A stretch of 64,000 bases of DNA from Dehalococcoidia bacterium (GTDB taxonomy: Bacteria > Chloroflexota > Dehalococcoidia > GIF9 > UBA5629). The notes under the pieces are model-generated. The model did no database searches and had not been told where the DNA came from. It saw nothing but the letters and a program-made list of their open reading frames with translations. Below are positions 49,500-56,994 of this stretch, piece after piece. The position numbers were made by a program, and so were the translations under genes. Each line of letters begins with the position of its first letter. Position 1 is the stretch's first letter. Location of the stretch: assembly GCA_050011565.1 (NCBI GenBank), contig JBEKIW010000002.1:256001-320000 (forward strand). The letters are read 5' to 3'.

Positions 49500-49900
49500 A
49501 TCTAGTGACTACTCAGACATATGACCGTGGCACAGGCAAGCGCAAATGCGCCATAGCACAGGTGAAGCTGTTCTCAGGCAAGGGAGAGATTATGGTTAAT
49601 GGTAAGCCGTACCAGGATTTTTTCCCTCGCCTTGAACATCGGCGCAATGTTGAGCATCCTTTTAAGGCTACGGATACTATAGGCAAGTTTAACGTTGAAG
49701 TTAAGGTGACCGGTGGCGGCGTTACCGGTCAGGCTGAGGCTATTCGACACGGCATTGCGCGAGCCTTAGTTAAAGCCAACGAGCAGTTCAGGCCTATGCT
49801 GCGTCAAGAGGGCTTACTGACCCGCGATGCTCGAATAAAAGAGCGCAAGAAGTACGGTCTCAAGCGCGCCCGCAAAGCACCTCAGTATACCAAGCGATAA
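49496..49900 (+). CDS. rpsI: 30S ribosomal protein S9
   Basis: [25 protein letters not shown]. Confidence 0.97.
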
Positions 49901-50086
49901 AGCTTAGCAACCGGCGAATACCGGCAAAAGCCTGCTTTGACTTAATATCCGTTATTTTAAATAACGACAGCCCAGTTTGAACTGGAGTCAGCAGCAGCTT
50001 TATAGTTCTCATATTCTTGCCTTGTTTCATTTGTCAGGCGGGCTTGACTGATACTACCTTGCCTGCCATAATGCGATAGGAAATAG

Positions 50087-51268
50087 ATGGTAAAAAATAC
50101 GGTAAATCGGAAACGCGCCAAAGTCGCCACTGCCAGTGTAGTGAGCGACGTGGAAAAAGAACTTCTTATTGCTGATAAAGTTTGTTCGGTGGAAAAGTCC
50201 ATGGTAATCGAAAACCACCAAAAAGGATGGTTCTGCGCCGCTATATGCTCCGACGGCAGTATGTTCATGGATGAAGCTGATTCGCCGGTCCGCATTCTGG
50301 AGATACTCAGCGGAGCCGTCATTGCCTGGGTGGACTTTCGCACCAACGATTTTGAGAAAGAAGCCTGCATTGCCGGCACACTTCTTGGGTTCAGCGACCA
50401 ACTTATTTCGTCGCTAAGTGGAGACTCTCGCCTGCTGTACGAAGACTTAAATACCGAGATGGGCCTAAAGCTTCCCTCCATTCAGATCCGGCTACACGAA
50501 CACCCTGACGTGCAGACTCACACCACACTACTTCTGCTGAGAAAGAACCTGATTCTAACCATTCACCCGGTGGATGTAGACCGTAGATTCAGCCGTCTGC
50601 GCCGGTATTCCAGTAAAGTATTGCAGAAAATACCTATCGATGCCTCTCCCGAAGACAAATTGACCGTATTGCTCATACGCATAGTCGACCAAAATAACGA
50701 CCGCAACTTTGAACACTTACGCCAGATTGAGGAACACGGCGACGAACTGAACAAACGTCTGATGAACCCCGAAACTCCGCGCACCATACTCGGGCCGGAG
50801 ATTTATGGCATGAAACACGCACTTATCAGCTACCTGAATGCACTATGGGAGACGGTTGATGTACTACACGATGTGCGTTATGGGGACGCCGAGATCATAT
50901 CTGATAACACACGGCTGCTGGAACAAGTAGGGCTGCTGGCTGAGAATGTAAAGCAGCAGATAGGTCTGGCCGAGCATTTATCCGAGGTACTGGCTTCGGG
51001 GCTGGAAGTATTGCAGTCGATTTACAACAATCAACTGCAGGTTCTTAACAACAAAATGGCGATGATTATGACCTATTTGACCATACTTGGTACCGCCGTG
51101 CTTGTCCCCAATACACTGGCCACGATCTTCGGCAACTCGGCTTTCGCCATGACGCCAGGTGATAGAGGCTGGTATGTAGCTCTATTGGTTGTATCTACTG
51201 TTATAGCCACCTACCTCGCCTTCTGGTGGGCCAAGAGGTCAGGCTGGTTTCCTAAAAAGATGGATTGA
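50087..51268 (+). CDS. CorA-family divalent cation transporter (non-canonical signature)
   Basis: Long helical domain, SIYNNQL..MTYLTI and two C-terminal TM helices; no GMN motif. Confidence 0.75.
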   Translation: MVKNTVNRKRAKVATASVVSDVEKELLIADKVCSVEKSMVIENHQKGWFCAAICSDGSMFMDEADSPVRILEILSGAVIAWVDFRTNDFEKEACIAGTLLGFSDQLISSLSGDSRLLYEDLNTEMGLKLPSIQIRLHEHPDVQTHTTLLLLRKNLILTIHPVDVDRRFSRLRRYSSKVLQKIPIDASPEDKLTVLLIRIVDQNNDRNFEHLRQIEEHGDELNKRLMNPETPRTILGPEIYGMKHALISYLNALWETVDVLHDVRYGDAEIISDNTRLLEQVGLLAENVKQQIGLAEHLSEVLASGLEVLQSIYNNQLQVLNNKMAMIMTYLTILGTAVLVPNTLATIFGNSAFAMTPGDRGWYVALLVVSTVIATYLAFWWAKRSGWFPKKMD

Positions 51269-51320
51269 GTTCTTGCGTCTGCTTCCCATCCATCCTATGT
51301 CAAATTGATAGTTGCCTTAT

Positions 51321-51656
51321 TTACAGGCTGACTATATCGTTATCCATCATAGACTGTATGGATTTCATCATGTTTGTCGGTTTGCCGACTGCCAGTTTAT
51401 CCGTCAGCTCAAAGTGTTCCAGGCAGGTGGTGCAGGACAGAAGCTCCACGCCCTGTTCTTCAAGCTGTTTCAAACGGTGCAAAACTGGAGAGCCTTCACA
51501 CGCAAGGCGCACTCCCGTATTCCAGAATATCATACTGTTCGGCTTATCTTCGCTTTCACCGAGCAATCTAAAAAAATTAGACATGAGCATGGAGCCCAGT
51601 TGCTCGTTCCCTCTTCCAAGTCCTTCCGATTGGATAAGAAATACCTTATGTGTCAC
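51321..51656 (-). CDS. YedF-like (DsrE-domain) sulfurtransferase/selenium metabolism protein
   Basis: GLGRGNEQLGSMLM, FWNTGVRL, LSCTTCL, VGKPTNM match the YedF C-terminal domain; GTG start with GGGAGG RBS. Confidence 0.8.
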   Translation of the reverse strand: MTHKVFLIQSEGLGRGNEQLGSMLMSNFFRLLGESEDKPNSMIFWNTGVRLACEGSPVLHRLKQLEEQGVELLSCTTCLEHFELTDKLAVGKPTNMMKSIQSMMDNDIVSL

Positions 51657-51685
51657 ATCTAACCTCCCTGTTGTTAATTTTTCAT

Positions 51686-51726
51686 AAATAAAAAAGCGAT
51701 GGCCGAGAAACTCCGCACCATCGCTT
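51686..51726 (-). terminator. Intrinsic terminator (attenuator) upstream of yedF-like gene
   Basis: Minus strand AAGCGATGGT-13nt-GCCATCGCTT then TTTTATTT, 30 nt before the start codon. Confidence 0.85.
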
Positions 51727-51749
51727 CAGGAGGCATTCTGTAAAATGCA

Positions 51750-51875
51750 CTAAACAGCCATAAGCCTCCTGATATTACGGAAACGGAGGTTCTGCGAGCA
51801 AATGACTGATGCAAAACTTGCACCCAGCCACTTGGCTCAAACTCAAGTGAACTGAAGATACAGTGCCTCAGTCAT
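51750..51875 (-). CDS. Putative Sec-containing leader peptide MTEALYLQFT-U-V-U-AKWLGASFASVICSQNLRFRNIRRLMAV
   Basis: AAGGAGGTGA RBS, ATG 51875, in-frame TGA at 51845-43 and 51839-37, then open to TAG 51752-50. Confidence 0.7.
51796..51838 (-). promoter_or_regulatory. SECIS-like hairpin
   Basis: Apical stem GGGTGCAA-GTT-TTGCATC begins 11 nt after the second UGA; lower stem GAGC-CAAGTGGCT / AGTCATTTGCTC. Confidence 0.7.
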
Positions 51876-51927
51876 TGCTCTCACCTCCTTTACATTTCTA
51901 GTCATTCGCGTTGGCAAATGTCGACGA

Positions 51928-51936
51928 ATTATAACA
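51928..51936 (-). promoter_or_regulatory. Extended -10 promoter for leader/yedF-like transcript
   Basis: Minus strand TGTTATAAT ~40 nt upstream of the leader RBS. Confidence 0.6.
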
Positions 51937-51994
51937 TCAATAAGCTGTTTGCGCTAATTATCTGTAAGGATGCGCATTAAAAGTATTCTGAAGC

Positions 51995-53059
51995 CTACTT
52001 CGCCTGGCTCAGCCGTTTCTTGAGGTAGTCGATGGCCTTTACCGGCGTGGGGTCTATCTCGTTGAGTATGGCCAGGTAATAGCTAACCCAATCGCCGAGG
52101 TAAATCAGGCCCATCATCTGACTCAGTTCATTTTTGCCCTGGCTATCAATGGTCTCGTGGCTGATTCCGCTCTGCTTTAATAGCTCGCCGGTAACCTGGT
52201 AGCGAATCAACATTCGGGGGTGCAGGGATGGAGAGCGGAGCATGACTACATATATTCTGGCGGCTAGTTCCCGGGGGAACTGGTAGCCGACGACAGCGTT
52301 GTGGTTAAGCTCGGAGAAAGTTTCGTAGAAAGCCGAGGCTTTGCTGTTCTCGTTAATTTGCGTTTTCCAGCGATGGGCGACCTCGGAGACAATACCGGCG
52401 CCGTAAATGACAGCTATCTTACCATCCAGCTTGGCAGCCAGTTGCTTGGCTGTGTTTGAGCCCGTGGGCACGGTCTCCTTTAGCTCGCCAAGCAGCTTAT
52501 CCAGGTCTTGAATCATCGCCTTGACCTCGGCCGTTTTGTCTTCAATGAGGTTCAGCTTTTGCAGGAAAGCTATGAGTGGCATGAAGCTGTAGCCCAGTGC
52601 CGCCCGCGGTTGGCCTTCATAGTCGATTTCGAAAACGGGCACCCCGGCATCTTCAGCCAGCTCCTTTAGTCTGCCGCCCGTGGTCATAACCAGCTTTTTA
52701 CACCTCTTCTGTAAAGCCTGAGAAAAGGCAGACAGCGTTTCCTCGGTATTTCCCGAGTAGCTAGAAGCAATTACCAGCGTCTTTTCGTCAACAAAAGCGG
52801 GCAGGTCATAATCGCGGTTAACGAAAATAATCGGTTTCTTTTTCGATGAAAGCAGGCTGCGGACTAAATCGCCGCCTATGGCCGAGCCGCCCATTCCCAG
52901 AACCACTACTTTATCGACGTTCCTGTAATCTTTGGGCAATTGGAATCTTTCAGCTTTGTTCCAGGCGGCGCGGCACTGCCGGGGTAAGCCATGAAGGTGC
53001 CCCCGCATGTTTGCCGGGTCGAGCTGTTTATATAGTTGAATGTCGTCTAAATTGACCAT
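51995..53059 (-). CDS. Bifunctional phosphoglucose/phosphomannose isomerase
   Basis: GMGGSAIGG, SYSGNTEET, QINENSK, ELNHN. Confidence 0.92.
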   Translation of the reverse strand: MVNLDDIQLYKQLDPANMRGHLHGLPRQCRAAWNKAERFQLPKDYRNVDKVVVLGMGGSAIGGDLVRSLLSSKKKPIIFVNRDYDLPAFVDEKTLVIASSYSGNTEETLSAFSQALQKRCKKLVMTTGGRLKELAEDAGVPVFEIDYEGQPRAALGYSFMPLIAFLQKLNLIEDKTAEVKAMIQDLDKLLGELKETVPTGSNTAKQLAAKLDGKIAVIYGAGIVSEVAHRWKTQINENSKASAFYETFSELNHNAVVGYQFPRELAARIYVVMLRSPSLHPRMLIRYQVTGELLKQSGISHETIDSQGKNELSQMMGLIYLGDWVSYYLAILNEIDPTPVKAIDYLKKRLSQAK

Positions 53060-54496: not shown

Positions 54497-55714
54497 TTAG
54501 TCTTTTAATCCCGCCTCGGCCCTGAGTATTTTGGCCTTGTCCGTTTTCTCCCAGGACAGCTCGAGGTCGTCTCTGCCGAAATGCCCGTAGGTGGCGGTCT
54601 GCCGGTAAATGGGGCGGCGGAGGTCGAGATACCTGATAATGGCTTCGGGGCGGAAATCGAAATGCTCATGAATCAGGTCAACGATGGTCTTATCCGGTAC
54701 CTTGCCGGTGCCGAAGGTCTCGCAGGAGATAGACAACGGATGGGCAACGCCGATGGCATAGGCAACCTGCACTTCAAGGCGGTCGGCCAGTCCGGCAGCC
54801 ACCAGGTTTTTAGCCGCGTAACGGGCCATATAGCTGGCGGAGCGGTCGACCTTGGTCGGGTCTTTTCCGGAGAAGGCTCCACCGCCATGGCGTGCATAGC
54901 CGCCGTAGGTATCGACCAGTATCTTACGGCCGGTAAAACCGGTATCCGATACCGGCCCGCCGATAACAAAACGGCCGGCGCCGTTAACGTAATACTTGGT
55001 ATTTTTATCCAGCAGTTTGGCCGGAATAACAGCTTTTATTACCTTTTCTATTATGCCTTTCCTGATAGTATCGTTGTCTACATCGGGATTGTGTTGAGCG
55101 CCGATAACCACCGAATCTATCCTCTTCGGCAAACCGCGGCAGTATTCCACAGTCACCTGTGATTTACCATCCGGGCGAAGGTAAGGCAGAATCTTCTCCT
55201 GCCTGACTCGAGCCAGGCGACGGCACAGCTTATTAGCCAGCGATATGGGCAGCGGCATAAGCTCAGGCGTCTCGTTGCAGGCGAAGCCGAACATCATACC
55301 CTGGTCGCCAGCGCCGGTTTTATCCAGCTCATCGACGCCTTTCTTTTTGTCTCTGACTTCCATCGCCTGGCTGACACCGGCGGAAATATCGGTCGATTGC
55401 TGCTTTATAGATACCAGTGTGCCGCAGCTTTTATAATCAAAGCCGTATTCCGGCTTGATATAACCGGCATCACGGACCACCTTATGCACGATGTCGGGTA
55501 TTTCTATATAGCAGTTGGTAGTAATCTCACCCAGAACGATTACCAGCCCCACAGTCACGGCGACTTCGCAAGCCACCCGGCCGAAGGGGTCTTGTTCCAT
55601 TATGGCATCGAGCACGGCGTCGGAAACCTGGTCACAGAGTTTGTCCGGATGTCCTTCGGTCACCGACTCCGAGGCGAAAAAATAACAAGGCTGCTCATTA
55701 AAGCTATTCGACAT
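54497..55714 (-). CDS. metK: S-adenosylmethionine synthetase
   Basis: [26 protein letters not shown]. Confidence 0.97.
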
Positions 55715-55728
55715 TTTTTCTCCTTTAA

Positions 55729-56994
<1,266 letters not shown>

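Follow-up and report, generated by a model that had tools for sequence, protein, structure and literature searches.

A conserved leader element of 207 nt (51685..51891, minus strand) precedes a gene for a DsrE-like protein in a 64,000-nt stretch from a Dehalococcoidia bacterium (assembly GCA_050011565.1, contig JBEKIW010000002.1, positions 256,001 to 320,000; this whole stretch is called the window here). With somewhat better than even confidence, we read this element as a leader-peptide transcription attenuator in which the control codons are two UGA triplets that would be decoded as selenocysteine (Sec) with the help of a hairpin of the selenocysteine insertion sequence (SECIS) type. Such a leader would probably report the capacity of the cell for UGA-to-Sec decoding, i.e. 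the availability of SelB-GTP-Sec-tRNASec, and hence the supply of selenium. The element is recognized by two covariance models, with 255.9 bits by R1, which was built from the eight leaders found in the genus, and with 246.1 bits by R2, which was rebuilt from a wider alignment. Its conservation was analysed in a final alignment (A3) of 34 sequences. The extended -10 box, ribosome-binding site (RBS), reading frame, hairpin and terminator that a preliminary description, made from the letters alone, had placed on the minus strand were all confirmed to the base. The parts of the locus are:

51928..51936 (-), extended -10-like box TGTTATAAT, read from the sequence
51890-51881 (-), RBS-region stretch AAGGAGGTGA, read from the sequence
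51883..51888 (-), Shine-Dalgarno (SD) sequence GGAGGU, located 8 nt before the start codon and serving as 5' arm of helix P1 (segment 1)
51870..51880 (-), 5' arm of helix P2, GAGCAAUGACU, which contains the start codon and pairs with AGUCAUUUGCUC
51796..51807 (-), 3' arm of helix P2, AGUCAUUUGCUC (helix 2 of the alignment)
51750..51875 (-), leader reading frame of 41 codons: ATG at 51875-51873, 10 codons, UGA, GUU, UGA, 28 codons, and TAG at 51752-51750
51843..51845 (-), first in-frame UGA (codon 11), UGA in 34 of 34 sequences
51837..51839 (-), second in-frame UGA (codon 13), UGA in 33 of 34 sequences and CGA in member L116
51808..51824 (-), SECIS-like hairpin GGUGCA-AGUUU-UGCAUC, 11-12 nt after the second UGA
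51777..51796 (-), segment 2: anti-SD sequence ACCUCC (51790-51785, 3' arm of P1) inside the antiterminator 5' strand CGCAGAACCUCCGUUUCCGU
51727..51771 (-), hairpin H2, CAGGAGGC (51771-51764) with GCCUCCUG (51734-51727), the apical part of the antiterminator, with the leader stop codon in its loop
51703..51726 (-), segment 3: terminator 5' arm and loop AAGCGAUGGUGCGGAGUUUCUCGG, also the antiterminator 3' strand, forming a duplex with 51796-51777
51690..51726 (-), intrinsic terminator: 9-bp stem (51726-51718/51702-51694), 15-nt loop and a run of six U
51321..51656 (-), regulated gene for a 111-aa DsrE-like protein, the C-terminal half of YedF, starting 34 nt past the U run

Three mutually exclusive pairings are found in this RNA: an anti-antiterminator (1:2), in which segment 1, comprising the SD sequence and the start region (51888-51870), pairs with segment 2 (51807-51785), an antiterminator (2:3) and the terminator (3:4). 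The last two had been recognized before, and the terminator as well as the antiterminator arms 51772-51764/51734-51726 and 51792-51783/51716-51707 are indeed present. The proposed dependence of the terminator on the upstream arm also stood, since the two structures exclude each other and the alternative pairing shows compensatory changes. What the preliminary description had missed is the third pairing, of GGAGGU with ACCUCC and of GAGCAAUGACU with AGUCAUUUGCUC, which makes up the anti-antiterminator. In the antiterminator, 51796-51777 is joined to the terminator 5' arm and loop (51726-51703), with H2 at the tip; the 2:3 duplex of the source sequence (51796-51777 with 51722-51703) has a predicted energy of -18.9 kcal/mol. 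Such a duplex is predicted in all 34 sequences and is better than 95% of the shuffled versions in 22 of them. In the distant members L113, L114, L115 and L116, letters have changed on both strands of the antiterminator while complementarity was kept, and at most 1 of 300 shuffles is as good.

The element was traced beyond the window by several types of search. A DNA search of 61 related genomes detected the leader in seven other genomes of the same genus, at 81-93% identity, and in these the conserved block begins exactly at the SD site and ends past the terminator. With R1, 8 of the 77 family genomes gave a match, all belonging to one genus (the source genome and 7 of the 13 others), and none of the 63 genomes of the 24 other genera of the family did; of 151 genomes sampled from the order, 8 carry it. 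A pattern scan of 185,579 species genomes gave 10 loci, 9 of them with the element, including two new and divergent ones (L051, L052), and among 29 loci obtained by scanning metagenome contigs with a pattern, 27 carry it. Three loci (L053, L059, L060) were dropped as chance pattern matches. When R2 was run pattern-free on two samples of 151 class genomes each, six new distant members appeared in four other families (L112, L113, L114, L115, L116 and L118). Searches centred on other genomes, which covered 3, 3 and 1 genomes, gave no new members. In total, the genus contributes 8 carriers among its 14 genomes, the rest of the class adds 8 more genomes, and the element also occurs on 27 metagenome contigs. 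In three relatives of the genus (L092, L094 and L095 in G005, G006 and G002), the leader is missing from the isomerase-yedF-half neighbourhood and a plain spacer of some 100 nt takes its place, so that the element can be present or absent within one genus. One further R2 match, L117 (G250, 23 bits), comprises the terminator only and was not counted as a member; at L117:1501-1648 there is a stand-alone terminator with a stem and U run nearly as in the leader (AAGCGAUGG...CCAUCGC, U run), without the 5' domain.

Covariation supports the proposed structure. Alignment A3 was obtained from 43 matches, not including L117, by dropping 6 exact duplicates and 3 shortened sequences. In A3, 95.0% of the cells are in standard pairs, as compared to 33-52% when the partners are slid by 1-3 columns, and both sides have changed in 21 of the 47 pairs; none of 500 shuffles reaches the observed values. 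The helix of the SD sequence with the anti-SD sequence 51790-51785 (helix 1) is paired in 97.5% of the cells, and helix 2 (P2; 10 pairs, 5 with changes on both sides) in 94.3%. In helix 6 (H2), 7 of the 8 pairs have changed on both sides, and helix 7, the terminator, is 98.4% paired with 3 such pairs. The 274-nt leader folds with -94.7 kcal/mol (z = -4.42), a stability that was reached by none of 200 shuffles. At L116:1501-1895, the H2 loop carries an insertion of about 216 nt, made up of three REP-type palindromic repeats that resemble one another.

The outcome of folding depends on which segments are accessible. With segment 1 removed, the minimum-energy fold of the source sequence is the antiterminator, with no terminator, and with the terminator 3' arm not yet made, 10 of the 11 folded sequences adopt the antiterminator. 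For the complete free RNA, the 34 folds give the terminator in 30 cases and the antiterminator in 3. Masking the region from the SD sequence through the UGAs shifts these figures to 20 and 14, respectively, and masking a ribosome at the stop codon of the frame gives the terminator in 32. These results contradict, in silico, the earlier idea that release at the UGA would by itself lead to the antiterminator: the empty RNA forms the helix between SD and anti-SD sequence and, in 30 of 34 cases, the terminator.

The reading frame and its UGA codons are conserved in a way that points to translation as far as the UGAs. All 34 sequences have an SD sequence and a valid start codon (29 ATG, 4 GTG, 1 TTG), followed 8, 9 or 10 codons past the start by an in-frame UGA (codon 9-11), and the frame is 35-46 codons long. 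A second UGA stands two codons on in 33 of the 34, the exception being the CGA mentioned above, and neither site is ever UAA or UAG. In the 14 sequences that were found without a pattern that forces UGA, UGA occupies the first site in all 14 and the second in 13. The codon in between varies at all three positions (GUU, GUC or GUG in 28 sequences, AAC in 3, and AAU, GCU and AGC once each), which shows that it is the UGA triplets themselves, and not a frozen block around them, that are conserved. The distance from start to UGA has changed in four separate events, by -6, -6, -3 and -3 nt. In the aligned part of the frame, five indel events are multiples of three versus one that is not, as compared to 1 versus 23 outside the frame (Fisher p = 2.4e-4, which becomes 4.7e-3 when two compensated +1/-1 pairs are scored as contrary evidence). 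The stop codon of the frame lies between the H2 arms in 32 of 34 members and inside the 5' arm, 5-8 nt short of its end, in the other two, so that a terminating ribosome would sit on H2. Translation up to the UGAs, which would start at the leader ATG, is well supported by these sequence comparisons.

The hairpin that follows the UGAs shares the geometry of the SECIS in the formate dehydrogenase (FdhA) gene of the source genome. The spacer between the second UGA and the hairpin is 12 nt in 29 of the 34 members, 15 nt in 3 and 14 nt in 1 (a spacer of 12 nt by alignment columns equals 11 nt by the count that was used for FdhA). In the gene for FdhA of the source genome, a UGA is followed by 11 nt and a 7-bp stem with loop GGUCU; in the leader, the UGA is followed by 11 nt and a 6-7 bp stem with loop AGUUU. 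The 11-nt spacer is also the rule for E. coli fdhF. Only 19 of 66,085 genomic TGA triplets precede a hairpin of the plan shared by the leader and FdhA (spacer 10-13, stem 6-7, 5-nt loop with GU at positions 2-3), and both the FdhA SECIS and the leader are among these 19. Pairing in the SECIS-like stem (helix 5) is found in 97.5% of the cells, and the closing A-U pair is swapped for G-C in 8 sequences. The loop GU is present in 34 of 34 members; it was forced by the search pattern in 20, and occurs in all 14 of the others. The SECIS loops of the source genome differ among themselves, with GGUCU in FdhA, AGUU after 15 nt in a glutaredoxin (Grx)-like gene and CGGGA after 10 nt in selD.

The machinery for Sec incorporation, the presence of which had been proposed as a check, is complete in the source genome (G000): selD with one in-frame TGA, which makes it a selenoprotein gene itself, selA, selB and tRNA-Sec are clustered outside the window at C4:46992-52951, with selB and the tRNA gene (selC) at 49516-52951. 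Among the genomes with the element that were tested, 15 of 16 have selA, and selA is present in 12 of the 14 genomes of the genus. Likely selenoprotein genes elsewhere in the source genome are those for the formate dehydrogenase alpha subunit (HCARLUHSPTV context, C1, TGA at 402030-402032, minus strand) and for a 79-aa glutaredoxin-like protein with a TUPWC motif (C2:356892-357131, plus strand). The codon-usage score scan for selenoprotein genes was crude, as it found the Grx-like UPWC protein and missed selD, and the hairpin-based genome scan recovered FdhA among 35 candidates, most of which arise by chance. In G318 (C20:27392-28742), selA consists of two adjoining pieces (profile positions 1-340 and 336-454) in different frames, possibly due to a frameshift or an assembly error.

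The genes behind the leader point to selenium as well. In the source genome, the gap of 34 nt between the U run and the gene leaves no room for a promoter of the gene's own. Its 111-aa product matches TIGR03527 with 130.2 bits (cut-off 110) at profile positions 85-189 of 194, and Pfam DsrE with E = 1.8e-4, under the gathering score. It lacks the SirA/TusA-like N-terminal domain with the CPxP motif (profile positions 1-84 are unmatched) and is thus a stand-alone half rather than a full YedF, so that the earlier name of a yedF-like gene is justified by TIGR03527, but only for the DsrE-like C-terminal part. A YedF C-terminal half is encoded downstream of the leader in the source genome and in six relatives of the genus, and also in L051 by sequence likeness. 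In L052 and L112, the leader is followed by a gene for a double-cubane reductase (NF040772; 510 and 508 bits), and in L005, L115 and L118 by one of the same NF040772 type, as judged by N-terminal likeness only. An ArsP_1 permease is encoded downstream in L113 and L114, and a YedE/FdhT-like protein of the Sulf_transp type in L116. By these assignments, the leader precedes four different selenium-linked gene families in the genome loci, which makes the link of the controlled gene to selenium stronger than had been claimed.

The connection of these families with selenium is drawn from published work. YedE, YedF and adjoining 2-hydroxyglutaryl-CoA-dehydratase-like genes are tied to SelD and Sec genes in the available text of Lin et al. 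(2015, PMC5322559). In the available part of a 2022 preprint (10.1101/2022.07.06.499078), 955 of 970 NF040772 proteins are placed in SelD-containing assemblies, and ArsP-family and DsrE-like proteins are assigned to a selenocysteine-associated system. SaoD and SaoE are given there as members of this selenocysteine-assisted organometallic system; we observed weak matches, far under the cut-offs, of the yedF half (51321-51656) to the DsrE-related SaoD and of the L113 and L114 permeases to the efflux transporter SaoE. At L091 (G003 C1:134775-138107), the yedF half lies directly 3' of a second double-cubane-like gene, and the leader of G003 precedes another double-cubane-like gene at about 142 kb from the yedF half. 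This arrangement suggests that the two proteins work together. At L115, the double-cubane-like gene downstream of 1501 (-) is open for only 192 codons, maybe due to a frameshift or because it is a pseudogene.

On this basis, a mechanism can be envisaged in which a ribosome would load on the leader while the SD sequence is still free and reach the UGA pair at codons 11 and 13, where SelB would read the hairpin and allow Sec insertion. Ribosomes that stay on the 5' part during synthesis of segment 3 by the polymerase would leave segment 2 free, so that the antiterminator would form and the gene would be transcribed. If the 5' part is empty, due to lack of initiation or quick release at the UGA, helix 1:2 would form and transcription would end. 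A ribosome that gets past the UGAs and arrives at the stop codon in the H2 loop would sit on H2, and transcription would end in this case as well. The ON state could be reached in two ways: the ribosome may wait at a UGA for scarce Sec-tRNA when selenium is short, or the delay may stem from slow double Sec insertion when selenium is plentiful, with a release factor that clears the site fast when there is no Sec-tRNA. These two directions of the response, with selenium shortage or selenium plenty as the ON signal, appear about equally probable.

The Sec-codon attenuator was already proposed in the preliminary description, together with findings that would speak against it, and it survived the three that were set beforehand and run. 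Several results nevertheless weigh against it. When a single ribosome is masked at the UGA, the terminator forms in 30 of the 34 folds, and helix 1:2 still forms in 27; the terminator persists because the energy model lets this helix close around the ribosome. An ON state would need a steric or queuing argument that goes beyond the energy model. Both search patterns forced the two UGAs and the letters of the hairpin, and 20 of the 34 sequences are thus conserved there by construction. The loop of the selD SECIS, CGGGA, is unlike that of the leader, and the Rfam families of bacterial SECIS elements, which are lineage-specific, gave no match to the leader at E up to 10. The L116 leader has a single UGA, at 21 nt from the hairpin. 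In G003 (77% complete, with runs of N), an intact leader with both UGAs was found and neither selA nor selB was. The co-occurrence with selA carries little power, because selA is common in the class (over the cut-off in 94 of 151 genomes).

The part of the frame behind the UGAs deserves separate attention, since it is there that the translation of the leader is hardest to trace. Codon-position periodicity is absent, with 121, 115 and 132 parsimony steps for the first, second and third codon position, respectively, in 28 sequences (31 unique ones minus the shortened L055, L063 and L065). A peptide that is not conserved fits a leader peptide, and may equally fit a non-coding RNA. The stretch from the second UGA to the anti-SD sequence is free of stops in frame 0 in all 34 members; the other two frames are stop-free in 28 and 32, so that the openness of frame 0 says little. 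A count of sporadic stops by frame looked supportive and was down-weighted, because the post-UGA stretch is nearly stop-free in all frames. In four lineages (L082, L112, L115 and L116) the frame shifts past the UGAs, each time staying open to the H2 region. To judge from these comparisons, translation past the UGAs is only moderately supported.

The same observations are what would be expected of an ordinary short leader peptide of 8-10 codons, in which the first UGA is a plain stop and the second a back-up. The remainder would then be structural RNA, there would be no Sec insertion, and the leader would sense general translation, a release factor or a factor acting in trans. Coding signals that are strong only up to the UGA, an openness behind it that is not distinctive, frame shifts in four lineages, the lack of codon periodicity and the missing Rfam SECIS match all agree with this. 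If the sites were plain stops, one would expect them to vary between UAA, UAG and UGA, as does the final stop of the frame (TAG in 23, TAA in 7 and TGA in 4 of the 34 sequences), yet the two sites are UGA in 34 and 33 cases. Furthermore, a plain-stop leader leaves without reason a second UGA exactly two codons on, a hairpin of the FdhA-SECIS type 11-12 nt past the UGA and four selenium-linked families downstream. We therefore regard this explanation as unlikely.

It can also be argued that the RNA itself is the sensor, i.e. that the 5' domain with P1, P2, a small and a large hairpin and the conserved UUCACCUGA...UGA junction acts as a riboswitch or protein-binding leader, where a molecule, an ion or a protein such as SelB would stabilize or open helix 1:2 and the frame would be incidental. 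Strong covariation combined with conserved unpaired letters, a clear expression platform and the lack of conservation at the amino-acid level are in agreement with such a role, and the E. coli selAB leader hairpin is said to be a SelB site without Sec insertion. It would be odd for an aptamer junction, however, that the 24-30 nt between start and UGA are the most variable part of the domain and change in length only in threes. All 34 members retain a valid start codon, even where its paired neighbour changes, the SD sequence is at ideal spacing, and no Rfam family, and hence no known aptamer class, matches the leader. The only Rfam match in the region 51000-52600 with E up to 10 was a chance one, to a snoRNA on the opposite strand. 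All this makes an incidental frame quite unlikely.

Far less probable is that the frame is a gene for a small selenoprotein of 35-46 aa with a U-x-U motif, perhaps a selenium carrier that works with the YedF half, behind which a leaky terminator and the alternative pairings are secondary. Such a gene would explain the SD sequence, the start, the two UGAs, the SECIS-like hairpin and the defined stop, and also that YedF lacks its SirA-like N-terminal domain here. Beyond U-x-U, however, the peptide is not conserved, with free variation in its N-terminal part and a C-terminal part that is read in a different frame in L115 and L116; a lone UGA is found in one member, and the amino acids that seem conserved correspond to RNA helices. 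The covarying antiterminator would be left unexplained. Finally, a decayed SirA-like N-terminal domain of a once full-length yedF is refuted for practical purposes: the leader ATG of the source genome is in the frame of the yedF start, 73 codons upstream of it, and the family also has YedF genes of full length with both domains (L103, L104, L106, L108 and L111), but four stops separate the two starts, in relatives the common frame is lost through 1-nt indels past the leader stop, three further gene families that are unrelated also stand behind the element, the RNA covaries and the peptide has no CPxP motif.

An attenuator with Sec control codons would combine features of several known systems. 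Leader-peptide attenuators of the trp, his, phe, thr and leu type control amino-acid operons. Like these, the present leader has a short frame with SD sequence and start, tandem control codons and overlapping pairings 1:2, 2:3 and 3:4 that lead to an intrinsic terminator, with the position of the ribosome as the deciding factor. It differs in that the control codons would be stops that need recoding by SelB and an internal SECIS hairpin, that the SD sequence itself is in segment 1 with the control codons in the loop between segments 1 and 2 instead of inside segment 1, and that the regulated genes serve transport and redox handling, not biosynthesis. In the tnaC leader of the E. coli tryptophanase operon, free tryptophan blocks release at a UGA, and termination is Rho-dependent. 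There, too, a ribosome held at the UGA of a short leader peptide decides on downstream termination, but recoding and a SECIS are not involved.

With respect to the hairpin, a SECIS-like structure in the 5' leader of E. coli selAB reportedly binds SelB and lowers selA translation, as Thanbichler and Boeck are said to have described in 2002. It shares with the present leader the use of a SECIS-type hairpin in an mRNA leader as a sensor of the SelB/Sec-tRNA state, but is said to have no translated UGA frame and no terminator, and to act on translation initiation of the Sec machinery. The bacterial SECIS elements of FdhA, the Grx-like protein and SelD in the source genome share with the leader an in-frame UGA, a spacer of 11-12 nt, a stem of 6-7 bp and a small G/U loop, the FdhA plan being the closest. 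The leader differs from bacterial SECIS elements in having two UGAs per hairpin, a host frame without a conserved protein and no Rfam SECIS match.

The nearest published case is fdhF(Sec) of Treponema primitia, in which selenium controls transcript elongation (Matson et al. 2013, PMC3892789). According to the available text of that paper, selenium acts after initiation by way of UGA/SECIS translation that is coupled to transcription, which the authors liken to attenuation, and it is in this coupling past initiation that the likeness to the present leader lies. As described there, the UGA and SECIS are inside the selenoprotein gene, with no leader peptide and no dedicated antiterminator/terminator pair, whereas the present leader is separate and controls genes that do not encode selenoproteins. 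Ribosome-mediated attenuation of amino-acid operons is summarised in the same text, which also states that an attenuator based on rare amino acid incorporation has been engineered (Liu et al., as stated in PMC3892789).

For a natural leader attenuator with selenocysteine codons, no description was found in the full-text literature, with most subscription journals outside its coverage. We are just inclined to believe that the element is the first natural attenuator with recoded stops as control codons, and that it governs a selenium regulon of Dehalococcoidia comprising YedE-like and ArsP-type transporters, the YedF half and double-cubane 8Fe-9S reductases. Little is known of how bacteria gauge their state of supply with selenium or selenocysteine; the available parts of two papers name no more than a LysR-type regulator, which is itself a proposal, and effects coupled to translation within selenoprotein genes (PMC5322559, PMC3892789). 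Direct measurement of UGA-to-Sec decoding would represent a novel principle of sensing, in which two established ones (attenuation and Sec recoding) are combined. The regulon would also provide independent regulatory evidence for a role of YedE, YedF, ArsP-type permeases and double-cubane reductases in selenium handling, a link that has so far come from gene neighbourhood and co-occurrence only. If the proposal is true, it points to a substrate related to selenium for double-cubane enzymes, which have been orphans so far, and it offers a compact natural part for selenium-responsive control, in which tandem UGAs should respond steeply to SelB with Sec-tRNA.

Upstream of the element, the TGTTATAAT box is, to judge from its letters and position, the likely promoter of the leader in the source genome. 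Boxes of the TGnTAnnnT type are present 35-50 nt upstream of the element in L051, L052, L112, L116 and L118, and a counterpart is missing in L003, L005 and L006, where the upstream gene abuts the element. A simple consensus scan for promoters and terminators missed the box, due to the scan's own limits, as well as the terminator, of which the 15-nt loop exceeds the scan's loop limit of 8. The upstream gene encodes a bifunctional phosphoglucose/phosphomannose isomerase. Further upstream of the phosphomutase/isomerase genes, frames resembling S-adenosylmethionine synthetase and adenosylhomocysteinase, named from their translations, adjoin at 54497-56991 (-) of the window.

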